Assembly: GCA_051872415.1 (NCBI GenBank)
Contig: JBJEDW010000042.1
Location: 56,850-120,849 of the forward strand
Source: Bacilli bacterium
GTDB lineage: Bacteria > Bacillota_I > Bacilli_A > RF39 > UBA660
Length of the DNA: 64,000 bases
Reading direction: 5' to 3'
Positions 32,226 to 62,026 of the stretch are shown here, piece by piece. Made by a program: the position numbers and the translations under genes. Position 1 is the first letter of the stretch. Every line of letters begins with the position of its first letter. Under the pieces are notes generated by a model. It saw only the letters and a list, made by a program, of their open reading frames with translations. It did not search any database and was not told where the DNA came from.

Positions 32226-32258
32226 AACTATATTTTTTATTATTTTATAGGTTATACT

Positions 32259-34735: not shown

Positions 34736-35116
34736 TTGTATTCATCCTATATTTCTATAAGATAGGTTCTGATATAAGCCTATATATCTTACCGAGTCTC
34801 TTATAACTAGCGTTCATTGTTACTTTTCTAGTTAAGTGTTATTGTGTACATTCCGTTTGAGTATTCTTTATATATTAGATATTTTAATTCTTTAAACAAT
34901 AATAAGTTCAAAAACAATTGTTGGAATACACCAGATAGTTTACAATCTGAAATATTTCCAAGTGTAAAGCAAAAGAAAAAGAACTGAAGAAAAATTAATC
35001 ATTTAATTTTTCAACAACTCCTTGCTTTGTTTATTATTATTTATATAAATTATTATTTACTACAACTAGTTCTATTTACATTGGATTTATTCGTACTTTG
35101 ATGACACTATTTAATT

Positions 35117-35164
35117 CAAAAAAAGCGGCAAAAAAGCGGCAAAAAAGCGGCAAAAAAGCGGCAA
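35117..35164. repeat. Four tandem copies of an 11-bp unit (GCGGCAAAAAA), iteron-like
   Basis: AAAGCGGCAAAAAAGCGGCAAAAAAGCGGCAAAAAAGCGGCAAATG, period 11 bp, immediately 3' of gene 35168..36838. Confidence 0.8.
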
Positions 35165-35167
35165 ATG

Positions 35168-36838: not shown

Positions 36839-36868
36839 CTCTTTTTTATTTTATCATACTTTTAATAA

Positions 36869-39232
36869 TTATAGTGTCATTTGACAATTATTTTCAATAA
36901 TTTCATATCCTACTTTTTCATATGCTTTTTTTCTTTTTAAAAACATATTTCTAATCATTGAAAAATTATCATCAACATAATCATAAACTATTATTTCTTT
37001 TTTATTCTTATTTTTTCTATGTAGTCTTCCTGTATATTGTACTATTCTATTTACACTAGATATTGGCATGGTTAAGAATAATACTTCTAATGTTGAATCA
37101 TCAAAACCCTCACCAATACATGAACTTGTAGCAATTATAATTTTATTTTCATTGTTTTCTTTAATATTAGAATTTAGTTCATCATATTTTTTAAGTATTT
37201 TCTTACCTAATCCACCGCGATACACAATTATATTATTGGTTATTTTTGATAATTTTCATATAAATATTCTAAATGATCAATTCTTTCCGTTAATACTAAT
37301 ACATTTTTACCATTTTTAAACTCTTTCTCAACATCTTTTATGACCACTTCATTTCTAATAACATCTTTCGAAATTAAATCATATATTTCATTAATTTTAT
37401 AATCTGTTACATTTTTGTTAACAAAATTTAAATGAACACTTTTACTATAAACTTTCATTGATAAATTTAATTTTTTATTATATTCTTTCATATCAACTCT
37501 ATATCTAATATCACCACATTGCATTTTAATAATTGGTGTATGCCCATTTTCTTTTTCTGGAGTTGCAGATACACCATATACATATTTAGCATTCATCATA
37601 TTTAATGCTGCTTCATAGGTATAAGCAGATAAATGATGGCATTCATCTATAATTATCATTCCATAGTTTTTAACAATATCATTAAATTTACCATCATTGT
37701 AAATAGTTTTAATACTAGCTACATCAATTTTATTTGTTAAAGTGTTTTTATTATCACCAATTTGTCCCACTTCTTCAATATTTAAAAATTCTTTTATTCT
37801 TTCTTTCCATTGCTTTAATAGTGATAAATTAAATGTAACTACAAGAGTATTAACATTTCTTGCCTCAACCAGTTTACAACATATAACTGTTTTACCAAAC
37901 CCAGTGGGTGCCTCAAGTATTCCATTTTTCATACTTCAACATTTCTTCTAGTGCTATACTTTGCTCTTCTCTTAATTTACCATTGAATTTTATATTTAGT
38001 TTTTGACCTTTATTTCTCTTATCAATAATATTCATCTTTATATTATTTTGATTACATAAATCAGATAAATACTCAAGTTTACCTCTAGGAATCATCAAAT
38101 ATTTTTCATCTTCTTTGCTGCAATCTATTACCATAGGAACATTATGAACAGACATTCTCATTCTTTGTTTTCTAAAAAATTCTGGATTGGCAAAAGTTGC
38201 AAGTCTTCTGAAACAATTTTTTACAACCGCACTTAAATTTGCTTTATCTATATAAATCATATTATCTAAGATAATATCAATACTTTTAGGAAAGTCAAAA
38301 TTATTTTTTTGCTTATTTTTAATTTCTTTTTTAATTTCTACATATTCATTACTAATATCTATTGTATTTTCAGATAAAATTCTTATTACACTAAATACAT
38401 CATCATAGTTCATTTTTTTTACACTACTTAAATAACTATATTGATCATCATAAGCAATAAAGTTTCTATCCAAGAAAGCAGTGTTATTATATTTCATAGG
38501 TTCATTTTGAAATGGAAGTGCGATTAAATTACCATAACCACCTTTAGGCATAGTATCTTGATTTGGAAACATTCTATCAAAAGAATCAATTTTTAAATTA
38601 TCACGTATTTCCATTGTTTTGGATAGCAATAGACTGCCCATCTTTCTAGCTGTTAATGCTTTTATATTATTTTCAAAGAAAATCCATACATGAATACCAT
38701 GGCCTGATCTACTACGCTCAATAGAAATAGGAACATTATACTTGTCACAAACGCTTGCAAAAGCAAGCACATCTTCTTTAATATCATTTTCATTTTTTTT
38801 ATCATCAAAATCAAAAGCCAAAAAGTAACAAGATTCATCTTCTAACATAGGATAAATTCCAATAGGATTACTATTAAATAAATGATTACTAATTACTTCT
38901 TTATCTATTGGTTTATCAATCCAATAATGACAATCTCTGCATTTTTTACCCATTGTTTTATTACAAACATTTTTATTCCATTCATTAGCACATTTAGGTA
39001 TATAATATTTCTTACTTGGATCTTTTTTATCAATTGATAGATAAGGATATATACTATCTCTACCTTTAAAATAACTCATAAAAACATTAACTTTTTCGTC
39101 ATTAGTAAAATTTATTTTAGGTTGATTATCATAAGTTTTAAGTAACTTCTTTAATTCATTAATTTCATTAATCAATTTCTTCGCTTCAAGTGTTTTTTTA
39201 TTTATGGTTTCAATTATCTCATTTCTTTGCAT
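36869..39232 (-). pseudogene. PrimPol (AEP primase-polymerase) fused to SF2 helicase, broken into three ORFs by two frameshifts
   Basis: 37913..39232 has the AEP motif RSGHGIHVWIFF and Cys clusters. 37240..37932 has helicase motifs I to III (APTGFGKT, DECHH, SAT). 36869..37225 has motifs V and VI (QYTGRLHR). The ORFs overlap or abut. Confidence 0.65.
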
Positions 39233-39349
39233 ATTATGCCCCTTAAAAATAATAAAGTTACTATATTATGCAATATTTTTAATTTTTTTTAAAGATTTAA
39301 AAGGATTTTGCATATTTTTCCGGTATATATACAATAGGAGGTGATGTTT

Positions 39350-39475
39350 ATGCAAGAATTAAACAAAGCAGAAATGCTTAATATCAATGGTGGTTCATCA
39401 ATAGTTGCTTGTACATATTATGGATTAGTTAAAATCACAAGATGTATCATCAAATTCATAAGTTCTAGATTCTAG
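39350..39475 (+). CDS. Double-glycine-leader class II bacteriocin-like peptide (41 aa), unannotated
   Basis: AGGAGGTG RBS 6 nt upstream. MQELNKAEMLNINGG|SSIVACTYYGLVKITRCIIKFISSRF, with an LNKxEMxxIxGG leader. Confidence 0.6.
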   Translation: MQELNKAEMLNINGGSSIVACTYYGLVKITRCIIKFISSRF

Positions 39476-39489
39476 TAAAAATTGCAGAA

Positions 39490-40146
39490 TTAATTTTTCT
39501 GCTTTTTCATTATTGTAAAAATATATCCAATAACACTTATTGGTAATAATATATACCAATAATTACTGTAATTAAGTAAATTATTGCTCACTGCATATAA
39601 ATTATGAATCAAATGTAAAAGAATTGGATAAATTAGGTTATTTGTTTTATAAAATGAATAATTCCATATTAAACTTATTCCTAACAAAATAATAAAACCA
39701 TCAATATTATAGATATGTATTAAGGCAAAAACAGTAGATGTTAATAGTATAGAAATAAAAATATTTAACTTTTTATTTAATTTTTTATATAATCCAAATC
39801 TAAATATTATTTCTTCAAATATTGGTGCAAAAATACAAGTAGTCACAATTTCAGCAATTATTTCAAAAATATTTGAAGGAATTTGAACATCAGTCGTTGA
39901 TATTGGAATAAATGTAACTAATTGTTCTAATAATATCCTAATAATAAATGATAAAAACATGTATTTCAATAAAATATTAACACTAATTTTTCTAATATTT
40001 AAACATTCTCTTATGTCAATTTTATCTTTACTTTTTAAATCATTTATTACTGCAAGTCCAAATAAGATTACTATCACAATATAAAATAATCTAGAAAAAT
40101 AAAAATCATTTATAACTTTATCTACCATTTTATCACCTATCTTCAT
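39490..40146 (-). CDS. CPBP family intramembrane metalloprotease (CAAX/Abi, bacteriocin immunity-like)
   Basis: EEIIFRFGLY motif 1 and FALIHIYN motif 2. Convergent with the peptide gene. Confidence 0.75.
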   Translation of the reverse strand: MKIGDKMVDKVINDFYFSRLFYIVIVILFGLAVINDLKSKDKIDIRECLNIRKISVNILLKYMFLSFIIRILLEQLVTFIPISTTDVQIPSNIFEIIAEIVTTCIFAPIFEEIIFRFGLYKKLNKKLNIFISILLTSTVFALIHIYNIDGFIILLGISLIWNYSFYKTNNLIYPILLHLIHNLYAVSNNLLNYSNYWYILLPISVIGYIFTIMKKQKN

Positions 40147-40273
40147 ACTAATTATACCATTTTGATGATTATTTAAAAAGATACTTCTTAAAAAGTAATT
40201 GGTTTGCTTATATTTGTATAGATTATAATTTGTTACAACTAATTCTTTTTATACTGGGTTTAATCTCACTTGG

Positions 40274-40306
40274 GTGTCCTGCATCAATAGCAACCTTATA
40301 ATTCAT
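40274..40306 (-). other. Amidase gene 5' stub (MNYKVAIDAGH) with RBS, fused to element-end sequence
   Basis: GGTGATGTTTATGAATTATAAGGTTGCTATTGATGCAGGACAC, then unrelated sequence. About 50 bp identical to the 41027-41075 copy. Confidence 0.6.
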
Positions 40307-40666: not shown

Positions 40667-40897
40667 TTAGTTATTTATATTTTCTTTTTTTAGTTTTGCT
40701 TCAATTTGAACAATACAAAATAAATTATCTGCTAATTCTTCACTGCCCATATAATCTAATATTTCATCTTTATCAGTAAGCCCTATTCGGTTTGCTATTT
40801 GCTTAGCATTTTCTCCACCATACAAACCTTGATAACCATAATTAGTAAATTTACCACAATTGTCTAATCCTTCAAAAATAACTAACACGCCTATCAC
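40667..40897 (-). CDS. Hypothetical small protein (76 aa)
   Basis: ORF only. Lies in a region of decayed phage-like fragments; a DinD/Bro-like C-terminal fragment MTHHKVGKAVRETIKRLDGTLPENLPTPKKSIAQIE is at 40505-40645 on the minus strand. Confidence 0.3.
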   Translation of the reverse strand: MIGVLVIFEGLDNCGKFTNYGYQGLYGGENAKQIANRIGLTDKDEILDYMGSEELADNLFCIVQIEAKLKKENINN

Positions 40898-41023
40898 CTA
40901 ACATATACATTATAGCATTAAAATATGACTTTTTATCAAAAAAGACAATCTATTATTAAATAAATCATCCTTATATTTACTAGGTTTTATAGCTATTCTT
41001 CATATTTGGGATATTCCAACACC

Positions 41024-41059
41024 TTAATGACCTTCATCAATAGCAACCCTATAATTCAT
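41024..41059 (-). other. Second amidase 5' stub (MNYRVAIDEGH-stop), followed by a diverged copy of the element right-arm sequence
   Basis: ATGAATTATAGGGTTGCTATTGATGAAGGTCATTAA, then AGGTGTTGGAATATCCCAAATATGAAGAATAG, about 70% identical to the 40240-40273 arm. Confidence 0.5.
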
Positions 41060-48797: not shown

Positions 48798-49916
48798 CTA
48801 TTCAAAATACTTATTATACTGACTAATAAAAAATGCATCAGTCATTCCTGCTATATAATCAATAACCTTCCTAGCACTAGAACACTCATTATAAAAAACA
48901 TCCATTTCATTAAGAAAAAGAGTAAAAATATCTTCAGTAACATCTTTATTTTCAATTTGCTTATAATAAAGAGCAAAAAGTTCATTAAACATTTTCTCAT
49001 ATTTCTCTATTTGACTTTTACTATTCGCCTTAAAATATATATTTTCATAATTAAAAGAAATAAGCTTATTCAAAGCATTATAAATATCATCTGAAATCTT
49101 AATATAATCTTTACCAATACTATTATTTATAATATCTTTAACAATAGTATCAACTATACTAGAATTAGAATTTCCAAAAACATCTGAAATATCCTTAGGA
49201 ATATCTTCTTTTCTTATTATTCCAAGTCTAATTGCATCATCTATATCTTTACCTATGTAAGCAACTATATCACTAATTCTAACAACACAACCCTCTAAAG
49301 TCATTGGTCTTACATTTTTTAAAATATCCTTATCTTTATAACTTTTCTCATATTCCAATAGAAAATCATTCACACTCTTAGAAACTGGTCTATATTCTCC
49401 CTCAAGCATTTCTCCATTATGACAAAAAATAGCATCTAAAACCTGAACAGTAATATTATTTCCTTTACCACAATTCTCAATATTCATAAGAGTCCTAACA
49501 CTTTGAACATTATGATTAAAATAACCTTCACCATACCTTAAACTAATTTTATTTAAAATACTTTCTCCAACATGTCCAAAAGGAACATGACCCAAATCAT
49601 GCCCAAGACTAGCAGCCTCAATTAAATCCTCATTTAAATTTAAAGCCCTACCAATAGTCCTAGCAATCTTGCTAACCATTTGAACATGTGTCATTCTCCT
49701 ACTTATCATATCATTATCACTATCAGAAAAAACTTGTGTCTTATCAATATAACGAACATATGACAAAGAATAAATTATCTTATCAATATCTCTAAAAAAA
49801 GGAGTCCTAAAATCCTCTTGAGTAGAAACAAGTCTTTTAGCCTCATTATCAAAACAAGCATATCTAGAAAGATTAAGATTATGTTTTTTCATATTTTGAT
49901 TTATCTTATCATTCAT
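48798..49916 (-). CDS. HD-domain dGTPase-like deoxynucleoside triphosphate triphosphohydrolase
   Basis: HDLGHVPFGH metal-binding motif. Dgt-family architecture. Confidence 0.8.
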   Translation of the reverse strand: MNDKINQNMKKHNLNLSRYACFDNEAKRLVSTQEDFRTPFFRDIDKIIYSLSYVRYIDKTQVFSDSDNDMISRRMTHVQMVSKIARTIGRALNLNEDLIEAASLGHDLGHVPFGHVGESILNKISLRYGEGYFNHNVQSVRTLMNIENCGKGNNITVQVLDAIFCHNGEMLEGEYRPVSKSVNDFLLEYEKSYKDKDILKNVRPMTLEGCVVRISDIVAYIGKDIDDAIRLGIIRKEDIPKDISDVFGNSNSSIVDTIVKDIINNSIGKDYIKISDDIYNALNKLISFNYENIYFKANSKSQIEKYEKMFNELFALYYKQIENKDVTEDIFTLFLNEMDVFYNECSSARKVIDYIAGMTDAFFISQYNKYFE

Positions 49917-50022
49917 ATTATTACCTCACAACCATTAAATATATATTCATTTTAACATATTGGCAAAAAAGCATAAAGATAAAAACAAAAAAAACCTTGC
50001 ACAACAAGGATTACTAACATAA

Positions 50023-50096
50023 TGGCAGGGGTAGCAGGAGTCGAACCCACATCAGCGGTTTTGGAGACCGTTATTCTACCATTGAACTATACCCCT
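50023..50096 (-). tRNA. tRNA-Trp (anticodon CCA)
   Basis: Minus strand AGGGGTATAGTTCAATGGTAGAAT..CTCCAAAAC..GGGTTCGACTCCTGCTACCCCTGCCA. Confidence 0.9.
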
Positions 50097-50171
50097 AACA
50101 ACAAAATAATTATATCTAATATAACACACTTTTGTCAATTATTTTTAGCACATTAACATATTATTAATTAG

Positions 50172-50606
50172 GTGATAAATATGGCAATAGTAAATTATAC
50201 AACTAAAGAAAAAGAATTACTTGCAAGAATAATGAGAGCAGAAGCACTTGGAGATGGAAATCTAGCCATGCTAATGGTTGGGAACGTTATTATAAATAGA
50301 ACAATTGCTAACTGCCTCACTTTCACAAACTTAAGAACCATAACAGATGTAGTGTATCAAAAAAATCAATTTTCTGGAATTAATTCTTCTCTTTTTGTAG
50401 GGAATCCAACAACAAAAGAATTAGAACTAGCTGAAAGAATCCTAAGAGGAGAATACTATCACCCTGCAACAAATGCCCTATGGTTTTTCAATCCAGGAAC
50501 CAATAACCCTTGTCCAACTCTCTGGTACGATCAAAGAAATTCAGGAAAATACAAAAGCCATTGTTTTTATATACCATACCCAGGTGTATGTAGACAACTT
50601 CATTAA
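50172..50606 (+). CDS. SleB/CwlJ-type cell wall hydrolase (Hydrolase_2 domain)
   Basis: LLARIMRAEALGDG...MLMVGNVIINR...VVYQKNQFSG is typical of the spore cortex-lytic catalytic domain. Confidence 0.75.
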   Translation: MINMAIVNYTTKEKELLARIMRAEALGDGNLAMLMVGNVIINRTIANCLTFTNLRTITDVVYQKNQFSGINSSLFVGNPTTKELELAERILRGEYYHPATNALWFFNPGTNNPCPTLWYDQRNSGKYKSHCFYIPYPGVCRQLH

Positions 50607-50706
50607 AAAAATCTCTATAACAGAGAATTTTTTTTATTAAAAACAGATCAAAATATCAAAAAATATCTTAATCTATTATTAAATTTTACCAAAAAATAGA
50701 AATAAA

Positions 50707-51647
50707 TTATGGAATCAAAAGAGTTTGTCCTATTTGCAAAATATCACTAGATAAATTATTAAGCTTAATCAAATCATTAACATTAACATCATAAATTTGA
50801 GCAATTTTCCATAAACTATCTCCACTCTTAACAATATAAGTTTCATATTCACTAGTCTTTGGAATAACAAGCTGTTTACCTATACTAAGCATATTACTGC
50901 TTAAATTATTAGCCTCCTTAAGTTCATCAACTGTAATATTATATTTCTTAGCAATACTCCACAAACTATCACCTGATTTTACTACATAAATAATTTGATC
51001 ACTATTATTTTTATCAATACTAGGTATTAATAGTTGCTGACCTATTTGTAATAAAGTAGTACCCAAGTTATTATAATCAACAATATCATTAACACTCACA
51101 CCATATTGATTAGCAATATTCCACAAAGAATCACCAGATTTTACAGTATAAACAACATAATCACCAGGAGAAACATTAGAAGAAGTCGGAATAACCAAAG
51201 TTTGTCCAATATTAATAAGATTACCACTAAGTCCATTAGCATTCTTTAAACTTTCAACACTAATATCATATTTATTAGCTATTCCATATAAACTATCACC
51301 TTTTTTAACAACATAAGTATTTGCACTAACCCCAGGAAGCGAATAAGGAACACCTATATAATCCACAACAGCTTTAACAACAGCCTCTACATAATCATCT
51401 AAGTTATTCTTAAGCTGACTAATATCATCCTTAGGACTATCAATAAAACCATATTCTACCAAAATAGGTTCAGTCTTTCCTGTTTCTCTATGAATAAAGT
51501 AATAATCCTTAGTAGGATCACTAGGAAGTCTTCTCTGATAATAACTACGAATATTTTGTCCTTCACGAGCTATATTATTAAGAACAGACTTAGACAAAGT
51601 ATCACTATTTCTTAAAGCATAAACTACTTCAGCACCATCGCCACCTG
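50707..51647 (-). pseudogene. C-terminal about 313 codons of a LysM amidase (end of catalytic domain plus 4 LysM repeats), 5' part severed
   Basis: Frame opens at TGA right at the junction. Reads SPGGDGAEVVYALRNSD.., about 90% identical (protein) to 55040..56233. Junction after CACCT 51643-51647. Confidence 0.75.
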
Positions 51648-51699
51648 GTGATGGTCATTGTGTAACATTTTTCTAATTTCTTAATATTTTAAAACTTTA

Positions 51700-52130
51700 T
51701 ATTGTGCTTTTCACACCATTCTCTAAATACATAATTATAATAATCAGATGAAAAGTTGCGATATTCTTCATATAAATCATGTTTTTTCAAACAATCATAA
51801 AATTTATCCATATAATTGTGGTTTCTTAATATATAAAATAATTCTGTCTTGTTTGTTTATCATCCCAAATATTTTTTACAAATTCAGACATTGTTGATTT
51901 ATGATCAATAAATTCATAACTTGGCAGTGAATAAATATTTAAAGAAGCTTTAGATAGTAATTTTTCATAATCTTCATCAATTGGATTGTCAGGTAAATGC
52001 TTTTTTTAATAATCCCATGGATTTACTATTTCCATTATATCCGTTTTAAAAAAAACACATTCCCTGTCACGTATATTCATAAGAATATCTGCTATCGTAT
52101 ATTTTTTTAAATTATTCATTATTATCACCA
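51700..52130 (-). pseudogene. Decayed ORF with multiple in-frame stops
   Basis: Minus-strand translation gives recognisable segments (KKHLPDNPIDEDYEKLLSKASLNIYSLPSYEFIDHKSTMSEFVKNIWDDK) interrupted by stops. Confidence 0.4.
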
Positions 52131-52153
52131 TCTATCTAACATTTAAATTCTTA

Positions 52154-53041
52154 TTAATTATGACTCTTTTTATTTTTCGTTAAATTTTCTATAACATACT
52201 CATGAAGTCTTGGCATCGTAATTAATAAATAGACATAACGTTCCAAATACATAAAGATTTCGGAAGAATCGCCTCTACTATAATAACCAGGGTTTGCTTT
52301 ATCACTTTCTTTTATAGTACCATTAAAAAACTTAACAAAATTTGAATTGCATTTATTAACTCTATTTAAATATTCTTTAGCTTTCTTATCATTTCCAATC
52401 TTATAGTATAATGCAAATAAAGGAAATAACATTTCTAAATTTTCTTCTGGATATTTTTTATATAATTTCAGCATATCATTTTCTTCTTCTAATGTAGCAA
52501 GTATTGCCATTAATAAATATCTGGCTCCCATATTGTCATTTTCATTTAATCTTAAAACTTCTCTACATATACTTTCTGCTTGGCGTAATTTTCCTTCTTC
52601 TAATAAATATTCTGCTTTAACAACCAGCCCTCTAATATATGGTCTTGTTTCAAATATTCCATAAAAATATCCAATGTTTTCTTTATCAAAATATTTCTCT
52701 TTTGTTAATCTATTTTTTTCAGCTTCTAAGCCATCATCTAAAAGTTTCATTCTTTTTATTCCATTTTCCTCTAAATCACATTGAAATAAAATTGCATCAA
52801 AACATTCTGGCGATTTTTCATATGCTTTTTTTGCTAACTTTATAGCCTCTTTCTCGTTTCTTGCATTTTGTGCTTCTTCTAATATTTCATAAGCATCATC
52901 AAGTGGTGTATTTTCATATTCTATTTCTCCATTGTTATACATTTTTATAAATTCTTGTAATTTTTCATTTGCTTCATCAATGCTTTCAACATTATTATTT
53001 TTTAAATATTCTTGTAACATATTATTAAACTTATTATCCAT
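52154..53041 (-). CDS. Hypothetical helical-repeat (TPR-like) protein, 295 aa
   Basis: Repeated amphipathic helix pairs (AIKLAKKAYEKSPECFDAIL, EGKLRQAESICREVLRLNENDNMGARYLLMAI). No catalytic motif. Confidence 0.45.
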   Translation of the reverse strand: MDNKFNNMLQEYLKNNNVESIDEANEKLQEFIKMYNNGEIEYENTPLDDAYEILEEAQNARNEKEAIKLAKKAYEKSPECFDAILFQCDLEENGIKRMKLLDDGLEAEKNRLTKEKYFDKENIGYFYGIFETRPYIRGLVVKAEYLLEEGKLRQAESICREVLRLNENDNMGARYLLMAILATLEEENDMLKLYKKYPEENLEMLFPLFALYYKIGNDKKAKEYLNRVNKCNSNFVKFFNGTIKESDKANPGYYSRGDSSEIFMYLERYVYLLITMPRLHEYVIENLTKNKKSHN

Positions 53042-53066
53042 TTACTTCACCTTCTACTTTCTATTT

Positions 53067-53501
53067 TTAACAATCTTTTTCATATTCTATTTTATTATCA
53101 ATACACCATTGTTCAGCAATTTTCTTATATTCATTATCTCGAAATTTATACCAATCATCAGTTATATTATTGTAATCAGTTATTTCTCTAAACCTATGAA
53201 AAGTTCCGTTTCCTCTAGTTACGTTAAATAATTCATTTCTTATTAAATCATTACTTATATTACTAATAAAATCCTGCATAATATCATAATCATTTTTTGT
53301 ATAAAAATTAAACATACTAATGATATCATCATTGAATTCATCATCTTCTGTATATGTAGATTCCTCTTTGTTAAAATCCCATTGCCACAAAACTTCATTT
53401 GTTTTAGTATTAAAATAACAACTTGTTTCCATACTAACATCATATAATGCATCTCTTATTTCAGATAATTTTATCATATTTACTTCACCTACTACTTTCA
53501 T
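53067..53501 (-). CDS. Hypothetical acidic protein, 144 aa
   Basis: ORF 26 bp downstream of 52154..53041. Preceded by the TGCAGAATTCTCTGCA palindrome at 53526-53541. Confidence 0.45.
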   Translation of the reverse strand: MKVVGEVNMIKLSEIRDALYDVSMETSCYFNTKTNEVLWQWDFNKEESTYTEDDEFNDDIISMFNFYTKNDYDIMQDFISNISNDLIRNELFNVTRGNGTFHRFREITDYNNITDDWYKFRDNEYKKIAEQWCIDNKIEYEKDC

Positions 53502-53586
53502 TCTGCGGTAATTATTGTAGAACTATGCAGAATTCTCTGCACATTTTTATTATTAAATATTTCTTAATAACATAGGATTTTTCATT

Positions 53587-54801
53587 TTAAAATTCTTCAC
53601 TTAATAAAAAATCAATCAAATTCAAATGAATAATACCATCACGAGATAAATCTATCTTATCAAGAGAAATAACATATTTTGGATAATTATCTTCTATAGA
53701 TTTATACGCTCCAAATTCTCTTTCAATAGTACTTTCATTGCCTTTCATTTCATAAGTGACTTGAATATATTTAATATTTCCATCTTTCTTTGCTAAAAAG
53801 TCAACTTCACCATTTTTAGTTTTACCAATATATACTTCATAGTTTCTATTTATTAATTCGTTATAAACAATATTTTCTAAAACAACATAACTTTTAAATT
53901 CTGGATTATTATTTTTAATTTGGGCAATTCCTAAATCAGTTGCATAATACTTATTTAACGTTTTTAAAACTCCTTTACCTGCAATATCATATCTATATAC
54001 CTTTTTAAGTATTAATGCTTTACATAAAGCATCTATATAATTATATAATGTTTCATTAGATATTTTTTTATTTTCTTTATCTAGATATTTTATAATATTA
54101 TCAGAAGAAAACTCACGACCAGCAGTTTCAATCAAATATTGTAATATCATATCAAACAAAACTGTATCTTTTAAATTTAATCTTTTTACAACATCTCTTA
54201 AAATAATTGAATCATATACACTATGAAGATAATTTTTAATATCAATTTCATTTGTAAACTCACATCTATTAGGAAGTCCACCCCATTTAGCGTAATCCCA
54301 AAAAGTATCTAAGTCTTTTCCATCTTTATTTGTTAAAGAAACATACTCTTTATAAGATAAAGGATTAATATTAAATGAAACATATCTTCCTGATAAAACT
54401 GATGACAATTCATCTGATAACATTTTACTATTAGAACCAGTTAAAAATATGCTTATATTTTTTATTGAAGCTCTTAATGAATTAACAACTTTTTCAAAGT
54501 TATCTACATTTTGAATTTCGTCTAAAAACAAATAATATATTTTATTATCTTGAATTTTATCTTTTACGTATTTATTTAGCTTTTTATAATCTAGTAATTC
54601 TTCAAATTCAATAAATTCAAAATTAATAAATATTATATGTTCTTCATCAATTTTTCTTTTTTCTTTTAATTCTTCTATTATTTGATTTAGAATAACTGAT
54701 TTACCGCATCTTCTTATACCAACCAATATTTTAATTAAATCTGAATCATAAAATCCTCTTATTTTAGATAAATAATCTTCTCTTAAAAGCATATTAATCA
54801 C
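53587..54801 (-). CDS. AAA ATPase of the AAA_14 + DUF4143 family
   Basis: VGIRRCGKS Walker A, LFLDEIQ Walker B and a C-terminal DUF4143-like region. Confidence 0.7.
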   Translation of the reverse strand: MINMLLREDYLSKIRGFYDSDLIKILVGIRRCGKSVILNQIIEELKEKRKIDEEHIIFINFEFIEFEELLDYKKLNKYVKDKIQDNKIYYLFLDEIQNVDNFEKVVNSLRASIKNISIFLTGSNSKMLSDELSSVLSGRYVSFNINPLSYKEYVSLTNKDGKDLDTFWDYAKWGGLPNRCEFTNEIDIKNYLHSVYDSIILRDVVKRLNLKDTVLFDMILQYLIETAGREFSSDNIIKYLDKENKKISNETLYNYIDALCKALILKKVYRYDIAGKGVLKTLNKYYATDLGIAQIKNNNPEFKSYVVLENIVYNELINRNYEVYIGKTKNGEVDFLAKKDGNIKYIQVTYEMKGNESTIEREFGAYKSIEDNYPKYVISLDKIDLSRDGIIHLNLIDFLLSEEF

Positions 54802-54833
54802 CTCTGATTACATTATATATTATTTTTATATTT

Positions 54834-54871
54834 TTGTAAAGTTATTACGGTTAATCGTAATAACTTTACAA
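54834..54871. promoter_or_regulatory. Perfect 16-bp-arm palindrome TTGTAAAGTTATTACG-GTTAAT-CGTAATAACTTTACAA
   Basis: Read directly. Lies between the amidase stop and the start of the DUF4143 ATPase. No flanking T run, so operator-like rather than a terminator. Confidence 0.5.
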
Positions 54872-55039
54872 ATGTAAAAATTATTACACCAGTAGTATAT
54901 TGGTCAAAAAATAAAATTCTATAAATTATATTCAATTTATTTCAAACAATCCATTTTTTATCAAAACACAAAATAGATTAAAATATCTACAAGAATATCT
55001 CAATCTATTATAAATAATTACCAAAAAATGGAAAATAAA

Positions 55040-56233
55040 CTAAGGTATCAAAAGAGTTTGCCCTATTTGCAAAACATCACTAGATAAATTATTAAGCTTA
55101 ATTAAATCATTAACATTAACATCATAATTTTGAGCTATTTTCCACAAACTATCACCACTTTTAACAACATAAGTTTCATATTCACTAGTCTCAGGTATAA
55201 TAAGTTGTTGTCCTATACTAAGCATGTTACTACTTAAATTATTTGCATCTTTAAGTTCATTAACAGTTATATTATATTTCTTAGCAATACTCCATAAACT
55301 ATCACCTGATTTTACTACATAAATAATTTCATCACTATCAAGAGTAACACTAGGTATTAAAAGTTGTTGTCCAATTTGTAATAAAGTAGTTCCTAAATTA
55401 TTATAATTGGCAATATCATTAACACTAACACCATATTGATTTGCAATCTCCCATAAAGAGTCACCCTTTTTAACAGTATAAACCACATAATCACCTGGAA
55501 GAACATTGTTAGAAGCAGGAATGATTAAAGTTTGTCCAATATTAATAAGATTACCACTAAGTCCATTAGCACTCTTCAAGCTTTCAACACTAACACCATA
55601 TTTATTAGCTATTCCATATAAACTATCACCCTTTTTAACAACATAAGTATTAGCACTTACACCAGGAGCAACATAAGGAACACCTATATAATCCGCAACT
55701 GCTTTTACAACAGCTTCAACATAATCATCTAAATTATTCTTAAGTTGACTTATATCATCCTTAGGACTATCAATAAAACCATACTCCACTAAAATAGGTT
55801 GGGTCTTCCCAGTTTCCCTATGAATAAAGTAATAATCCTTAGTAGGATCACTAGGAAGTCTTCTTTGATAATAACTACGAATATTTTGTCCTGTTTTAGC
55901 AATATTATTAAGAACAGATTTAGCTAAAGTATCACTATTTCTTAGAGCATAGACTACTTCAGCACCATCGCCACCTCCCGCATTTATGTGATTAGAAATA
56001 ACTATCACATCATCTCTATTACCAAAAGCATTAAGTATCCTACTAACTCTTTCAGTCTTAGAAAGCGTCTCATCAGTATCACGAGTAAGTTTAACAGGAA
56101 TTCCAAGTTCATTAAACCTATCATACATATATAAAGCAGCCTCTAAAGTAAAATCTTTTTCCTGTAAATTTCCATTAATAGCACCAGGATCAACTCCTCC
56201 ATGTCCTGCATCCACTACTATTTTATAATTCAT
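55040..56233 (-). CDS. N-acetylmuramoyl-L-alanine amidase (Amidase_3) with 4 LysM repeats, intact
   Basis: MNYKIVVDAGHGGVDPGA...SNHINAGGG...E. The C-terminus has four LysM repeats of the type YVVKKGDSLYGIANKYGVSV. Confidence 0.85.
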   Translation of the reverse strand: MNYKIVVDAGHGGVDPGAINGNLQEKDFTLEAALYMYDRFNELGIPVKLTRDTDETLSKTERVSRILNAFGNRDDVIVISNHINAGGGDGAEVVYALRNSDTLAKSVLNNIAKTGQNIRSYYQRRLPSDPTKDYYFIHRETGKTQPILVEYGFIDSPKDDISQLKNNLDDYVEAVVKAVADYIGVPYVAPGVSANTYVVKKGDSLYGIANKYGVSVESLKSANGLSGNLINIGQTLIIPASNNVLPGDYVVYTVKKGDSLWEIANQYGVSVNDIANYNNLGTTLLQIGQQLLIPSVTLDSDEIIYVVKSGDSLWSIAKKYNITVNELKDANNLSSNMLSIGQQLIIPETSEYETYVVKSGDSLWKIAQNYDVNVNDLIKLNNLSSDVLQIGQTLLIP

Positions 56234-56421
56234 AAACTATCACCTAAAATATCTTATGAAAAAAATCAAAAATGGTGCAAATATATTAAATGTAAACAAA
56301 ACAAAATTACCAAAAATTACCAAAAAAAATAGGTTGACATAGTCAACTCTAAGCCTCTCCATTCCAAAAATATAAAGGAATTTAGAAAGTTTTCGCAAAT
56401 AATACTATTAGGAGGTGTTAT

Positions 56422-56550
56422 ATGTCAAATTTAAATAATTCAGAACTAATGAATATTTATGGCGGTAGAGCAGGATTTGCTTTACCTAATTTTGATGCTT
56501 ATATCAAAATGTTTAATTGGATTTATAAAACTGTTAAATCCTGGTTCTAA
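56422..56550 (+). CDS. Double-glycine-leader bacteriocin-like peptide (42 aa), unannotated
   Basis: TAGGAGGTG RBS. MSNLNNSELMNIYGG|RAGFALPNFDAYIKMFNWIYKTVKSWF. Confidence 0.6.
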   Translation: MSNLNNSELMNIYGGRAGFALPNFDAYIKMFNWIYKTVKSWF

Positions 56551-56644
56551 TTTTTTACAGTAGTATTTTTGCTACTGCTTTTAATTTTTAATAATATATA
56601 AATGATTAAACATATAACACCAAATACAAAGTAAACTATATTAT

Positions 56645-57060
56645 TCAATTAATATATCCTATCATTGCATAAATATTGTGTATAAAATGCATAATTATTG
56701 GATATATTAAATTATCCATTTTAAAGTAAGAATAATTCCATATTAAACTAATAACTAATAGTATTACAAAAACATCTATCCCATAAAAATGTATTAATGA
56801 AAATATTATTGAAGTTAATAGCATAATTATAATATTAGATTTAAATTTTTTATTTAAATATTCATATAATCCAAATCTAAATATTATTTCTTCAAAAATT
56901 GGAGCAAACAAACACATAGTAACTATTTCTAAAACTATAGACCAAAAATTCGTTGGAATATTTGAAATAGTTTCATCTATTGGTAAAAAATAAATTGTTT
57001 GTTCAATTATATTCTTAATATTTCTAAAGGAAAGTGTTTATCAATATTTTTTACTTCCAT
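56645..57060 (-). pseudogene. CPBP-family (Abi/CAAX) immunity-type protease, N-terminal part disrupted
   Basis: ORF 56645..56917 carries EEIIFRFGLY and SLIHFYG. Upstream TM-coding sequence is out of frame. Confidence 0.55.
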
Positions 57061-57189
57061 AAAACCACCTATAATTTTTTTATATAATACCTGATATAAT
57101 TTTTAATTTTGCCTGGTATTATGAAACAACATTTAAAAATTATTCTTTATTTAAATATTTTCAATTTATCCTATCAATCTATAGTTTGA

Positions 57190-58482
57190 TTAATTTTTTA
57201 AATTTCCAATAGAAACAACATATACCCCATCTTCACGAACATAAGATAATTCCGAAGCTGTTAACACCATTAAAAATGCCGGTTCCCCGCTTTTAGCTAT
57301 ATCTATTTTATCTTTAAATTGGATTAATGTCTTAGCAGCATCATCAATTTGTTTTGCTCCCATTTTAACTTCAATTGCACCCCATTTACCATCAGAAGTT
57401 TTTAATATAAAATCGACTTCAAAATCTTTGTTATCTCTAAAATAGAATAAATCTGCATTTATAGATTCGGCATATATTTTTAAATCTCTATAACACAAGT
57501 TTTCAAAAATAAATCCAGTAAAATTTAAATCATTTATTAAATTTTCTTTTTTTAATCCTAAAGACGCTATTGCTATAGAAGGATCTATTAATTCTAATTT
57601 AGGACTTGTTCTTAATTGTATTGATGATCTTAAATTCAAATTAGTTGCAGGAACATATTCGAGAACAAATAATTTTTCTAACGTTAATAAATAATCATCA
57701 ACGGTAGGTCTTGAAATTCCTAGATTAAATAAATTTGATGTATCGTTTACAATTGTAATTTTATTTGTTGCTGTTGAAACATTTCTACTAATACTTTTTA
57801 ATAAAGCTTCCATTTTATATTTATCTCGTTCAATGCCATCTAATGATTTTACATCTTCATTAATTAAACTTTTAACATATTCTGTAGCAACTTTAAATTT
57901 ATTTTCACCAGCAATATTTAATGATTCAGGCCATCCACCTCTTATCATTACATTAATAATATCATCAAAAGATAAACTAGAAACTCCAGATATATCTTTA
58001 CTATTTATAATGTCTAATAATGATACTTTTCCATTTGATTCTCCAGATTCATACAATGACATTGTTCTCATCATTAGCTTTGTTATCCTACCTGTACCAG
58101 TATGCATAATCTCGTTTTCAACTGGTCTTGCAGAACCCGTCAAGATATATTGTCCTTTTAAACTAGTATGATCAATATCCATTCTAATAGAATCCCATAT
58201 AACAGGATACATTTGCCATTCATCAAATAATCTTGGTTTTTCACCTTCTAGAAACAACGATGGTTTTGTATTACTAATATTATCATATTGAATTTTTTTA
58301 TCAGGATCTTGTAATTCAACTAAACTATTACAAAATTGTTTCGCAGTCGTTGATTTTCCACACCATTTTGGTCCTTCTATCACAATTGCTCCCATATATT
58401 CAAGCTTATTTTTTATTATATTATCTACAATTCTAGGCATATATTTTTTCATAAATGAATCCCTCCAAATATTATTATACAC
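57190..58482 (-). CDS. AAA ATPase of the AAA_14 + DUF4143 family (second copy, diverged)
   Basis: IEGPKWCGKST Walker A and a DUF4143-like C-terminus. Confidence 0.7.
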   Translation of the reverse strand: MYNNIWRDSFMKKYMPRIVDNIIKNKLEYMGAIVIEGPKWCGKSTTAKQFCNSLVELQDPDKKIQYDNISNTKPSLFLEGEKPRLFDEWQMYPVIWDSIRMDIDHTSLKGQYILTGSARPVENEIMHTGTGRITKLMMRTMSLYESGESNGKVSLLDIINSKDISGVSSLSFDDIINVMIRGGWPESLNIAGENKFKVATEYVKSLINEDVKSLDGIERDKYKMEALLKSISRNVSTATNKITIVNDTSNLFNLGISRPTVDDYLLTLEKLFVLEYVPATNLNLRSSIQLRTSPKLELIDPSIAIASLGLKKENLINDLNFTGFIFENLCYRDLKIYAESINADLFYFRDNKDFEVDFILKTSDGKWGAIEVKMGAKQIDDAAKTLIQFKDKIDIAKSGEPAFLMVLTASELSYVREDGVYVVSIGNLKN

Positions 58483-58649
58483 TATTTTTATTATTTTACA
58501 AATTTTATTTTACATTTTGTACTGTTTATGTTTTACGTTTTGTACTTTTTTTATTTTGCATTTTGCCTTTTTTATTTTATGCGCATTATTCATATTTAAT
58601 ATTATATAAAAAACTAAACATAATAACTTTTTATTTTTTATCTCAATAC

Positions 58650-58946
58650 TCAATCAATTCCTTTGTAGTGGTAACTAAACTCTGCACCTCCCGCATTTAT
58701 GTGATTAGAAATAACTATAACATCATCTCTATTACCAAAAGCATTAAGTATCCTACTGACTCTCTCACTCTTAGAAAGGGTCTCATCAGTATCACGGGTA
58801 AGTTTTACAGGAACACCAAGTTCATTAAACCTATCATACATATATAAAGCAGCTTCTAAAGTAAAATCTTTCTCCTGCAAATTACCATTAACAGCACCAG
58901 GATCTACTCCTCCATGATCAGCATCCACTACTATTTTATAATTCAT
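58650..58946 (-). pseudogene. N-terminal about 87 codons of the amidase (DADHGG variant) with promoter, severed after HINAGG
   Basis: About 97% nucleotide identity to 55976-56340, including about 100 bp upstream. Diverges exactly after CACCT (58684-58688). Confidence 0.75.
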
Positions 58947-59042
58947 AAACTATCACCTAAAATATCTTATGAAAAAAAGCAAAAATGGTGCAAATATATT
59001 AAATGTAACCAAAACAAAATTACCAAAAATTACCAAAAGAAA

Positions 59043-59786
59043 TTAACAGCGCCTAACTCTAAACTTCTCCATAAAAGTAAATCTACCAAAAATAATATAA
59101 AAACAAGAGCACAAAGAAATAATAAAAGCACTAATAGAATTAACAAACAAATCCTCCATAGTATCAATAAGCCCAATATCCAAATATCCATCATCTAAAA
59201 CAATAACAGAACCATCAACATAAATCTCTGCCTTTTCAATATTTCTAATTTTACTAACAACTAAATTTTCTCTATCTAAACTAACAGTATTAAACTTCTC
59301 AACATAAGTATCTTTCTGCATATCAAAACCAAAGCAGTTATCAAATGCAAATTCCGTAAATTCCCAAAACACCCCAACTGAAATAGAAAAACAAAACACA
59401 AACAAAAAACACATCAAAAACATATTTTTTACCTTACTACATCTTTTTAAAAACCCATAAATCAAAGAAAAACCAAAAGAAGCAGTAATTACCCCTGCTA
59501 AAAAATGTAAAAAATTATCCCAAAAGGAAAAAATAGTATAAAAATTAAACACTTCTCCTAGTATCTCAGCTAAAAATATGAAAGAAAAAATAAAAAATCG
59601 AAGCAAAAAAGGAATCTCAAATCCAAAAAACTTTTCAACAAACAAACACAATAAAAACAAAAAAGAAGTCAAAAAAGAAATAAAAACCATCCTATGCTCT
59701 CCAATACAAAACCCATAACACAAACACAAAAAAGTTAAAAAATAAAACAAATAAAATATACTCTTTCTCTTCTTCAAATCTTTCAC
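59043..59786 (-). CDS. Polytopic membrane protein of unknown function
   Basis: At least 6 hydrophobic helices, Phe/Cys-rich. Confidence 0.5.
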   Translation of the reverse strand: MKDLKKRKSIFYLFYFLTFLCLCYGFCIGEHRMVFISFLTSFLFLLCLFVEKFFGFEIPFLLRFFIFSFIFLAEILGEVFNFYTIFSFWDNFLHFLAGVITASFGFSLIYGFLKRCSKVKNMFLMCFLFVFCFSISVGVFWEFTEFAFDNCFGFDMQKDTYVEKFNTVSLDRENLVVSKIRNIEKAEIYVDGSVIVLDDGYLDIGLIDTMEDLFVNSISAFIISLCSCFYIIFGRFTFMEKFRVRRC

Positions 59787-59831
59787 CTAATAAAATATAT
59801 CAACTCAAAACAAAAAAAATGATAACTAATA

Positions 59832-61070
59832 TCATTTTTCCTTCAAATTAATAGAAACATCCACAAGCTTTCCATCTCTTTCAACAGTAAATAAAGCTTT
59901 ATCTCCAACCTCTTGTTTAAATAACTCGTATCGTAAATAAGCCATATTATCAACACTGTTTCCATTAAGCTTTATAATAATATCACCAACCATAAGCTTT
60001 CCATCAGCAGAAGTACCAGATTGAACTTCCTCAATAACCACTCCTTTTTCAAGTTTAGTATCAACCTTTTTAGAAAGACCATAATACTCCATAGCTTCTT
60101 GATTTTCTAAATTAACCATAGAAATACCTAAATAAGGTCTTTTAATATTTTCTCCCTTTTCAAATGTATCTAAATGCCCCTTAATATCTTCAATAGAAAT
60201 AGCAAATCCCATTCCTTCAACTTCATTTTTAACAAGTTTAAGAGAATTCATTCCAATAACTTCACCATTAACATTACAAAGAGGCCCACCACTATTACCA
60301 GGATTCATAGCGGCATCAGTTTGAAGAAGCTTCATAACATAATCTTCTACACCCCCACTAACAGCAACTGTAACAAGTCTATCCTTACCAGATAAAATAC
60401 CTCGAGTAACAGTACCTCTATATTCATCTCCAACTGGAGAACCTACAGTAAATACAGTATCACCAAGTACAGCACTTGTACTAGAACCAAGCTCAGCAAC
60501 CTGCTTAACAGCACCATCATCAACACTTATAATAGCAATATCTAAATATTGATCCCCACCAACATATTTAGCATCAACTTTAGAATCATCTGAAAAAGAA
60601 ACCTTCAAAGAACTACTACCATTAACAACATGATAATTAGTTAAAATATATCCTTTACCTGAATCTTTTTTATATACAAAACCTGTTCCAGAAACAGAAA
60701 GTTTATCATTCTTATAATTCTCTATATAAACAGTAGCATCATAAACTTTCTTTATCCCTAAATTAAGCCCCTTATCAACAAGTTCTACCTGAGCAGTGGA
60801 AGATTTAAACATAACTTCTTTAAAACAAAATACAAAAATAATAGCAACTACAAATCCAAGAACAAACAAAAGAATATACTTAATATTCTTACTCAAAAAA
60901 TCACTTTTCTTAACAGATTGACTCAAAGATTCACTCTTCTCATTATTTCTTGTAAAGCTTTTCTTTTTATCAGAATTATCCTCATAAACAACTTCAGCAT
61001 CAATTACTTTATCACTAATAACTTCAGTTTCATCTTCTTTTAATTTTTTTTCCTCATTACCTGTTTCCAT
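59832..61070 (-). CDS. htrA: HtrA/DegP-family serine protease (trypsin domain + PDZ), membrane-anchored
   Basis: His in TNYHVV, Asp in DIAII, Ser in GNSGGPL. C-terminal PDZ. N-terminal TM. Confidence 0.85.
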   Translation of the reverse strand: METGNEEKKLKEDETEVISDKVIDAEVVYEDNSDKKKSFTRNNEKSESLSQSVKKSDFLSKNIKYILLFVLGFVVAIIFVFCFKEVMFKSSTAQVELVDKGLNLGIKKVYDATVYIENYKNDKLSVSGTGFVYKKDSGKGYILTNYHVVNGSSSLKVSFSDDSKVDAKYVGGDQYLDIAIISVDDGAVKQVAELGSSTSAVLGDTVFTVGSPVGDEYRGTVTRGILSGKDRLVTVAVSGGVEDYVMKLLQTDAAMNPGNSGGPLCNVNGEVIGMNSLKLVKNEVEGMGFAISIEDIKGHLDTFEKGENIKRPYLGISMVNLENQEAMEYYGLSKKVDTKLEKGVVIEEVQSGTSADGKLMVGDIIIKLNGNSVDNMAYLRYELFKQEVGDKALFTVERDGKLVDVSINLKEK

Positions 61071-62026
61071 TAAAACAACTCCTTCTTAAATATTCCCTTA
61101 ATATCACTCCAATTATCTGGAAATCCCATTCTATCAAGAACTTTATTAATAGGTATAGTCCTTAAATTAAAATCTAAATTATTAATAGCATCCTCTATTT
61201 CTAAAACTAAATCATTAACTTCATTCTCCTTAAGCATAGACTTAAGAATAATAACAAGAGCAAATAAATCATTCTTACCATAAATATACTCATTATCCAT
61301 CATAGGAATATTAAGTTTTCTATGATACACAGAATCTTCAATACATTTTTGAGTTCTATTTTCATAAACAATATCCTCATGAGCACATAAATTACGATAA
61401 TTAGACAAAATACTAAGATTATTCATAAAAGCTTTTAAATCAAGATCATAAAATTCAATAATATCATATTGATCCTCTTTCTTTAAAACCGAAAAAAGCT
61501 CAACAACAATTCCAAAAGACAACACCTTAACAAGAACCCACAAAGGAATATAGCCATAATTAAGAGCATAATGTCTAGTAGCAGAATGAACAGTAGCATT
61601 AGTCTTAATTTGTCTTTTCATTTTACCAATCACATCATTTACTTGCCTTCTGCAATCAAAAGATGTATTAAAATTAGAAGACTTTAAATATTCCTTTTCT
61701 CTATAACCATATTTCTTAGAAAGTTGATAAGATATTATAGACTTAATATTATTCTCAATTATTAAAATATTTTTAAATAATATATTTCTAAGACGCCTAT
61801 CAAATAAAAATAAACTATATACTTCTTCAAACTTAGTACCTTCAATATATCTAGATTTATCCTTTGATTTCATAAAAAGATGACGATATCCATTCAAAAA
61901 GAAATAATTTTCCCTAAGAAGAACTTCCTTAGCAAACTCTTCATCATCTATTACAAGACCCTTATCCCTCAAAATCTTAATTTGTTCATCTAAAGACTTA
62001 AATGTTTTGCTTCTCATAAGTACCAC
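61070..62026 (-). CDS. Abi_2 family abortive-infection protein (AbiD/AbiF-like)
   Basis: LDEQIKILRDKGLVIDDEEFAKEVLLRENYFFLNGYRHLF matches the Abi_2 N-terminal signature. Its stop overlaps the htrA start codon. Confidence 0.65.
   Translation of the reverse strand: MVLMRSKTFKSLDEQIKILRDKGLVIDDEEFAKEVLLRENYFFLNGYRHLFMKSKDKSRYIEGTKFEEVYSLFLFDRRLRNILFKNILIIENNIKSIISYQLSKKYGYREKEYLKSSNFNTSFDCRRQVNDVIGKMKRQIKTNATVHSATRHYALNYGYIPLWVLVKVLSFGIVVELFSVLKKEDQYDIIEFYDLDLKAFMNNLSILSNYRNLCAHEDIVYENRTQKCIEDSVYHRKLNIPMMDNEYIYGKNDLFALVIILKSMLKENEVNDLVLEIEDAINNLDFNLRTIPINKVLDRMGFPDNWSDIKGIFKKELF

Follow-up and report, generated by a model that had tools for sequence, protein, structure and literature searches.

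Elements driven by large serine recombinases (LSRs), such as phiC31, Bxb1, A118 in comK, SPbeta in spsM, and LSR-borne islands, insert inside a conserved open reading frame (ORF) at one dinucleotide and carry imperfect inverted-repeat arms around a short core. At the attP of a serine integrase, both strands are cut at the central dinucleotide. The sizes of the attachment (att) sites of these enzymes and their requirement for a recombination directionality factor (RDF) have been described (PMC12286644). Spore formers harbor gene-intervening elements, namely skin in sigK, SPbeta in spsM, and gin in gerE (PMC4191935; PMC5595907), and gin has no phage genes (PMC5595907). Here we describe a locus in a stretch of 64,000 nt, the window, from an uncultured Bacilli bacterium (assembly GCA_051872415.1, contig JBJEDW010000042.1), in which a resident amidase gene, X, is interrupted by a 7-kb insert that contains an intact copy of the gene, Y. 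We conclude that the breakpoints are probably att sites of LSRs, and that the insert is probably made up of what is left of two islands, neither with a recombinase, on either side of an intact gene that was imported. The amidase gene is a hotspot for small LSR-driven islands with phage-defense genes in many uncultured gut Bacilli.

The comparison with LSR elements is close on several points. The recombinases found at this site in related genomes have the Resolvase, Recombinase, and Zn-ribbon domains of the family, the insertions lie inside a conserved ORF at one dinucleotide, their imperfect inverted-repeat arms surround a short core, and removal of the window insert restores the ORF precisely. 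Unlike those elements, the window insert has no recombinase and has mismatched arms that come from two element types, and even those relatives that are complete are very small, at 8-9 kb. Of the features that define an LSR element, the window insert thus lacks two, the recombinase and the matched arms, and shows a third, conservative site-specific insertion. The skin and gin type offers a further parallel, being small, sometimes non-phage, and serine-recombinase-encoding, and splitting a coding gene that precise excision can restore. The size and the absence of phage genes in the relatives' islands recall gin in gerE (PMC5595907), and, like SPbeta in spsM (PMC4191935), these islands lie inside an ORF. 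In contrast with these elements, the window copy cannot excise because it is without a recombinase. We also considered a sporulation-linked programmed excision, which found no support: against the NCBIfam model spore_cwlD the amidase scored 64.8 bits, far under the cut-off of 221.55 bits, so that an identity as CwlD was rejected, and its SleB/CwlJ-like neighbor was also below its own cut-off. In the literature that we searched, an Amidase_3/LysM gene of uncultured gut Bacilli was not described as a target of such insertions. Instructive as the locus is, its element belongs to a known kind and is not a new type.

Island accretion (of the ICESt1 type, or in tRNA-gene arrays) piles up element generations and remnants at one att site. 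Classically, newcomers integrate at an attL or attR that belongs to a resident element, and regeneration of the target is the work of the element. The present locus resembles it in the recombinase-less defense cargo left behind at one attachment site, but the target here is a split ORF, and a fresh attB arises only via an intact gene copy recombined beside a stub. The lambda-gal and lambda-bio heterogenotes are aberrant-excision products that re-insert by homology. In them, a host flank, an att junction, and part of the element precede a repeat of the host flank. Each half of the insert has this order, with duplicated segments of 390 bp and ~1,017 bp. Since the two versions of a duplicated segment differ by 7-11%, donor and recipient belong to different lineages. 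The likeness to these heterogenotes is an analogy rather than a demonstrated mechanism, and no phage packaging is implied by it.

The split amidase and its junctions

Pfam identified three minus-strand pieces of one kind of gene at the locus, an N-acetylmuramoyl-L-alanine amidase with an Amidase_3 domain and four LysM repeats. The resident gene X is flanked by HtrA on one side and by a SleB-like gene and tRNA-Trp on the other, and is interrupted after ...HINAGG. Copies of CACCT (AGGTG on the coding strand) lie at 51642-51646 and 58685-58689 of the plus strand, separated by 7,038 bp. Joining 58946..58690 to 51646..50707 gave an uninterrupted ORF of 398 aa with ...HINAGGGDGAEVV..., sharing 91.2% identity with Y. 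On the coding strand (the caret marks the cut), the 5' junction reads ...GCGGGAGGTG^CAGAGTTTAGTTACC and the 3' junction reads ...CCATCACC^AGGTGGCGATGG; the uninterrupted site in Y is GCGGGAGGTGGCGATGG.

The 5' fragment of X (58685-58946, minus strand) has 92.8% identity to Y over 263 coding nt and 93% when the promoter is included (387 nt); the promoter homology extends to ~59072. Over the final 32 nt 5' of the junction the two copies, N_X and N_Y, do not differ. The 3' fragment (50707-51646, minus strand) has 88.7% nt identity to Y, and its homology reaches ~77 bp beyond the stop codon (to 50630, corresponding to 54954 in Y). These data confirmed the initial annotation of an amidase split by an insert with precise junctions, with CACCT at both ends and an ORF restored on deletion. 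Its coordinates for the repeats were one base off at both sites, and its insert length of 7,036 bp is replaced by the measured value. An intact paralog in the insert with about 90% identity to the split gene was also found as stated there, but the ~97% identity given for the 5' part was too high.

Both fragments are now orphan stubs. The 3' stub (C_X) has no internal stop and no in-frame ATG, and an in-frame TGA stands three codons 5' of its junction. The 5' stub (N_X) carries G10D (codon 10, 58917-58919): the motif is DADHGG in the stub but DAGHGG in Y and in the relatives examined. Such a non-conservative substitution within a conserved motif is in keeping with a relaxed constraint on N_X. 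In the relatives that keep the recombinase, the amidase stubs remain intact ORFs. In L013 (9995-10954), the arm next to the 3' stub (right arm, type B, see below) supplies an in-frame ATG (ATG CGA GGT GGC...), and the 3' amidase fragment forms an ORF that starts in the arm; the corresponding arm in the window has the in-frame TGA where L013 has the ATG.

The same site in related genomes

A scan with Y of one genome per species yielded 80 loci, nearly all of them from gut metagenome-assembled genomes (MAGs), labelled as uncultured Bacilli, 'Mycoplasma sp. CAG:611', Mollicutes, or Erysipelotrichaceae. The comparators, and probably the window too, are metagenome assemblies. The two halves of Y were searched separately against these species-representative loci by tblastn. 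In at least 12 other species-level genomes, the break in the gene falls at the codon where X is split (L032, L034, L013/L051, L006, L007, L017/L059, L033, L040, L041, L042, L047, L056, and L064), and the junction sequences line up at ...GGAG^GTGG.... In many species the gene is intact and the site empty; among these, L001-L004 share the neighbors of the window locus, HtrA and the SleB-like gene/tRNA-Trp. The target GG falls within codons 87-88 (GGA^GGT GGC, ...NAGG^GDG...) of the conserved Amidase_3/LysM gene, and a conserved attB, ...AATGCNGGAG^GTGGCGATGG..., is thereby defined.

Where the DNA just inside the junction was available, it usually encodes an LSR. Both stubs lie on one contig in L032 and L034, 8.2 and 9.1 kb apart, and the inserts encode a protein of 553 aa (L032, 7260-8921) or 555 aa with Resolvase, Recombinase, and Zn_ribbon_recom domains, that is, an LSR, as well as C5 DNA methyltransferases, which we read as restriction-modification cargo. 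L013 has a 528-aa LSR (5121-6707), an AAA_14/DUF4143 ATPase, a UPF0158-like protein, a TPR protein, the right arm, and then the 3' stub. The LSR ORFs near the junction in these three genomes thus span 528-555 aa with the same three domains, and LSR homologs also stand beside the split gene in L033, L041, L042, L047, L056, and L064 (tblastn). Three complete elements carry restriction-modification or other cargo and matched inverted-repeat arms. The complete islands of relatives measure 8-9 kb or more, and no phage or conjugation genes were seen in the ORF lists of those of 8-9 kb. Scans of viral contigs with two of the arms defined below, the left one of type A and the right one of type B, gave no match, and so no free attP or phage form; megablast of window positions 50000-60000 against plasmid and phage collections gave no match either.

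Attachment sites and pairing of the arms

The elements at this site have arms of three types. Type A (L032, L017, L006, L047) has CAGAGTT(T/C)AGTT(A/G)CCACT on the left and ...GGTAACTAAAC...GCG on the right, and type B (L051/L013, L033, L041, L042) has GGTCAAAGTGTAAC on the left and GTTACA...TGACC on the right. In type C (L034), the left arm contains TTAGCTC and the right arm contains its inverted complement, GAGCTAA. To compare them, arms of 24 nt were mirrored about the GG of GGA^GGT; the null drawn from local sequence was 7.3 +/- 2.3 matches, with a 99.9th percentile of 15. The two arms belonging to one element matched at 14 (type A), 17 (type B), and 15 (type C) of the 24 positions. The window's own two ends matched at 7, equal to the null, and thus the insert ends have no terminal inverted repeat. 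The left end of the window insert matched the type-A right arm (L017), inverted, at 17 positions, and its right end matched the type-B left arm (L051), inverted, at 19. A partner arm for either end was not found within the window.

In types A and B the dyad is centered on the same GG, an arrangement that corresponds to the attP of serine integrases. The shared core is 5-6 bp long in type A and in the window, and 13-14 bp long in type B; it is the identity of attP and attB around the crossover, and not a duplication made on insertion. The conserved attB and the arm types with their cognate recombinases, at least three such sets in an uncultured gut lineage, are candidate new integrase/att pairs for genome engineering.

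L032, L034, and L033 carry three different islands (arm types A, C, and B, respectively) at the identical amidase nucleotide. Their flanks are 91-97.5% identical, and their inserts share the LSR region alone, at ~73-76%. Different islands therefore replace each other here among close relatives, and the comparison implies what would be a rapid turnover of elements at the amidase site.

Composition of the insert

The insert is a composite and immobile remnant, with a type-A left half and a type-B right half, from which both recombinase-bearing halves are gone (Table 1). A 1.4-kb chromosomal fragment with intact Y occupies the place of these missing halves. Read on the coding strand, N_X is followed by the type-A arm and the cargo of the left half, which consists of ATPase 1 (of the PDC-S01 kind), a truncated CPBP protease, and, on the opposite strand, a peptide with a double-glycine (GG) leader. 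After a join at ~56362 come the end of a membrane-protein gene, a promoter, Y, and 77 bp up to a second join at ~54954-54923. The cargo of the right half follows, with ATPase 2 (also PDC-S01), a UPF0158-like protein, a TPR protein, and a pseudogene, and then the type-B arm and the C_X stub. Neither Pfam searches of all sizeable ORFs nor tblastn with three LSRs found a recombinase or transposase in the insert (51647-58684).

Table 1 Features of the split amidase locus in the window
Feature	Position	Strand	Remarks
5' stub N_X of amidase X, orphan	58690..59072	-	Promoter and codons 1-86 to the crossover core
attL core CACCT	58685..58689		Holds the predicted GG crossover dinucleotide; junction position matches L032, L056, L064, L051
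Left arm (P' half-site), type-A LSR element	58628..58684	-	CAGAGTTTAGTTACCACTACAAAGG...; homologous to the left end of the L032 element
ATPase 1 cassette (AAA_14 + DUF4143) with own upstream region	57189..58596	-	Pfam; PADLOC PDC-S01
CPBP/Rce1-like intramembrane protease, bacteriocin-immunity type, truncated	56648..57019	-	Pfam; first ~68 residues missing
42-aa peptide with double-glycine leader	56422..56550	+	MSNLNNSELMNIYGG^... (...ELMNIYGG^RAGF...); by motif only
Imported chromosomal block	54954..56362	-	~30 nt of membrane-protein gene 3' end, promoter, amidase Y, ~77 bp downstream
ATPase 2 (AAA_14 + DUF4143), PDC-S01 candidate defense gene, type-B cargo	53587..54801	-	PADLOC E 1.5e-138; Pfam
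UPF0158-like small protein, type-B cargo	53067..53501	-	Pfam; ortholog L013 8501-8911
TPR protein, type-B cargo	52154..53041	-	Pfam; orthologs L013 8937-9824, L018 13826-14713
Pseudogene of a 149-aa UPF0158-like gene	51692..52125	-	In-frame stop and frameshift; tblastn with L005 4795-5244
Right arm (P half-site), type-B LSR element	51647..51671	-	...TGTTACACAATGACCATCACC; only copy in the window
attR core CACCT	51642..51646		Plus-strand reading
3' stub C_X of amidase X, orphan	50630..51641	-	Codons ~88-398 and downstream region

The assignment of the two halves is based on alignments with other species. On the left, window positions 58628-58935 align with L032 1863-1554, and the type-A arm is present in a single copy in the window. 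On the right, the last 3.3 kb are collinear with the L013 element from just past the LSR stop codon to the right arm (52153-54922 against L013 9825-7083, 88.7% nt identity), and a type-B right arm adjoins the 3' amidase fragment also in L033, L041, L042, and L013.

Amidase Y (55040-56233, minus strand) is intact, with its own promoter region, and the attB within it is unoccupied (55965-55981). The chromosomal fragment includes ~125 bp upstream and ~77 bp downstream of the gene, and the 5' flank retains the last ~30 nt of the neighboring membrane-protein gene. Short duplicated flanks bound the block, with repeat spacings of 2,713 and ~4,330 bp. Since Y has 98.9-99.0% nt identity to the amidase of MAG L050/L005, but the HtrA/membrane-protein flank of L050/L005 is only ~84% identical to that of the window, and X is 88-92% identical to the same amidase, Y is a chromosomal allele common to another lineage and not an island gene. 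It is the sole intact amidase of the three in the window, which fits selection for repair. Signs of decay in the insert are the UPF0158-like pseudogene and the truncated CPBP gene, and outside it, the G10D change of the N_X stub.

Both ATPases are candidate defense genes by their match to the PDC-S01 profile. The ATPase 1 gene itself (57190-58482) had an E-value of 8.9e-60 (PADLOC). A gut-metagenome scan with ATPase 1 gave 65 loci, in which homology is confined to 57189-58596; the gene with ~100 bp upstream recurs there as a stand-alone cassette, and the region behaves as a self-contained cassette. None of the 65 loci adjoins an amidase stub, and one adjoins an LSR of the window's other type. 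The upstream region (58490-58600, minus strand) has several copies of a motif like (G/T)TACAAAA(C/T)GTAAAA, conserved with the gene in many metagenome contexts, which may form an array of regulator binding sites. The truncated CPBP gene matches residues 69-192 of homologs of 218-221 aa (tblastn). The 42-aa peptide, which had no family match in Pfam, is read from its leader motif as putatively bacteriocin-like, and together with the adjoining CPBP gene it would represent a decayed bacteriocin locus.

Origin of the insert

A path that would lead to this structure starts from a defective island piece with an amidase stub, either upstream region-N stub-arm-cargo or cargo-arm-C stub-downstream region, that recombines with an intact amidase allele, or the reverse. 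Of the two joins, one would be a homologous crossover within the stub and the other illegitimate. This would amount to an insertion-duplication with two copies of the homology segment, which measures 390 bp on the left side and ~1,017 bp on the right. The outcome would be a restored working gene, cargo stranded without a recombinase, and the N_X and C_X stubs left at the outside. We propose this specific path, with one homologous crossover and one illegitimate join for each half, only tentatively. Two site-specific routes were rejected: tandem double integration of an A and a B island would put a hybrid attP, and not an intact gene, in the middle, and the products of an attR x attL exchange between two islands mismatch the observed order.

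Several points weigh against reading the insert as two island remnants around an imported gene. We infer the order of events and the repair mechanism from end states, and the putative crossover dinucleotide is deduced from dyad symmetry alone. No complete type-A island with the window's left cargo was found, including among the 65 metagenome loci of ATPase 1; the cassette of this ATPase is found alone in many contexts, and therefore the left cargo could have arrived separately. A conspecific genome with an empty or fully occupied site was not retrieved, and exact-protein look-ups with the SleB-like protein, the membrane protein, the 98-aa stub ORF, and Y returned nothing on record. The internal joins (~56362 and 54923-54954) were seen in this assembly alone. 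Both types of outer junction, as well as the order of Y and ATPase 2, were seen independently in other assemblies.

The insert might instead be a single non-autonomous island with a hybrid B-arm/A-arm attP, integrated in trans by a serine recombinase encoded elsewhere, with Y as a replacement amidase that makes the insertion costless to the host. Such an island would explain why both junctions lie at the same GG, why deletion of the insert restores the ORF exactly, and why Y, with its own promoter region, is the sole intact copy of three amidases. We consider it unlikely: the arms are unpaired (7/24), whereas they are matched in all three elements for which both ends are known; the sole LSR in the window has ~30% identity to the A, B, and C recombinases, and a different site and arms; the right half is collinear with a type-B island from directly past its LSR gene; the flanks of Y are chromosomal remnants; and there are pseudogenes within the insert. 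The initial annotation, too, had treated the insert as one element, and this has to be given up, since the arm on the left belongs to type A and that on the right to type B, and neither element has kept its recombinase. A chimeric metagenome assembly joining strains with different occupants of the hotspot is very unlikely. It is suggested by the fact that the relatives are nearly all MAGs, that MAG contigs break at the locus, as in L050/L005 (att site), or near it, as in L146 (directly ahead of the amidase), and that exact runs of ~30 nt are common to the three amidase copies. However, the copies differ by 7-11% and the exact repeats are below usual assembly k-mers, both outer junction types occur independently in other assemblies, and the order of an intact amidase followed by ATPase 2 and TPR genes is found independently in L018.

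Homologous recombination or gene conversion between amidase paralogs alone, with CACCT as incidental microhomology, would account for the 32 nt before the junction that are identical in N_X and N_Y and for the duplicated flanks at the edges of the Y block (spacings 2,713 and ~4,330 bp). It is highly improbable, because beyond both breakpoints lie arms common to LSR islands of other species at the same nucleotide, because such recombination cannot yield N and C stubs with foreign arms between them, and because the junction recurs with recombinase-encoding inserts. A mosaic between paralogs, as first suggested, holds in part for the interior, where the Y block is a chromosomal fragment that was apparently added by recombination, but not for the breakpoints, whose arms are shared with the elements of other species. 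Breakpoints in a region identical in both paralogs and no empty site among relatives, the combination under which the split would have had to be put down to homologous recombination, were not what we found: element arms lie beyond the breakpoints, and the uninterrupted locus that had been expected in related genomes is present in L001-L004 and others. Hardly credible, finally, is a transposon insertion with a 5-bp target-site duplication, which was the initial interpretation of CACCT. A 5-bp direct repeat is indeed present at both ends, but the insert has no transposase, its ends share no terminal inverted repeats, and in at least 12 species this very nucleotide is the target of serine-recombinase-encoding elements, with cores of 5-14 bp; the repeat is the attL/attR core of an LSR, with the same GG cut. 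The absence of transposase and integrase genes and of obvious terminal inverted repeats had been noted from the beginning and is borne out by Pfam, by tblastn with three LSRs, and by the 7/24 matches between the ends, where the cryptic inverted repeats that were also envisaged did not appear. The cargo is defense- or bacteriocin-like, as had been supposed, with PDC-S01 ATPases, CPBP, and the GG-leader peptide. What looked like a transposon-like insert without a transposase is explained by remnants of two islands around an imported gene, as a fossil of serine-recombinase islands.

Recurrence of partial islands

The pattern of a stub with an arm and a partial island, followed by a short gene flank and an intact gene, recurs in L018, L005, L053, and the window's other amidase. 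In L018, ATPase 2 and the TPR gene, with 94% identity to the window, come after an intact amidase; a ~110-bp repeat of the region downstream of the amidase bounds them, and the C stub is deleted. In L005, a Y-like amidase precedes 24 residues left from the C-terminus of an LSR, and then comes cargo, which includes AbiE-like genes (by reading of the sequences) and an intact version of the window's pseudogene; beyond the cargo lie the last 190 bp of an amidase, where the downstream region is present a second time, and finally another TPR gene begins. L053 has a 13-codon stub and a partial island 5' of a second promoter and a Y-like 5' end. In every case of this pattern, the recombinase side is the part that was lost.

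A ratchet, in which the amidase site builds a defense island by repeated island delivery and gene repair, is a speculative extension that we regard as somewhat doubtful. In it, an LSR mini-island would deliver cargo, and repair via the stub beside the arm would strand this cargo without a recombinase and regenerate attB. Acting on both sides, the ratchet would leave recombinase-less defense genes around a functional gene, and amidase alleles would be moved between species. Five independent structures fit it: both insert halves, the window's second amidase, L053, L005, and L018. The locus shows delivery and then fixation of defense cargo (PDC-S01 ATPases, restriction-modification, AbiE) in small-genome gut Bacilli.

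Contigs of several relatives (L050 at its end and L005 at its start, L146 and L053 at their ends) stop exactly at or beside the amidase att site, and the contig of P0002 stops just before the amidase. Such ends would result if a sample contained both occupied and empty alleles, or repeated stubs, and the site is likely a systematic assembly break point in this clade. The locus is thus flagged as a place where assemblies of these organisms tend to break.

Other features of the window

A second LSR island, apparently complete, lies at 32204-40273 (8,070 bp). Its 535-aa LSR (32259-33866, minus strand), with ~30% identity to the recombinases of types A, B, and C, reads toward the third amidase paralog, which is cut near codon 12 (DAGH^GG) and has its 3' part at 31205-32203. 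The arms of this island share CTGGGTTTA in inverted orientation (32204-32230 and 40245-40273). Among the cargo genes are one like PrimPol (37913-39232) and one for a full-length CPBP protease (39490-40146); a 556-aa protein is also encoded, and a helicase/restriction-like gene is present in fragments (36869-37225 and 37240-37932). The third amidase has two successive 5' stubs, at 40274-40306 and 40998-41059 (ATGAATTATA(G/A)GGTTGCTATTGATG...), each followed by a similar island arm, with a fragment of a BRO/RhuM-like gene (40667-40897) between them. The stub at 40998-41059 is the older one, and the stub is duplicated as at the main locus. The same LSR type occurs in L019 at the same site of the X/Y ortholog.

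Outside the insert, upstream of HtrA, the window has an AbiD-family abortive-infection gene (61070-62026, minus strand; PADLOC E 1e-61), and L053 and L146 have an Abi gene in the matching position. On the opposite side of the locus there is a dGTP triphosphohydrolase-like gene (48798-49916, minus strand) with weaker matches to anti-phage dGTPases, below their cut-offs.

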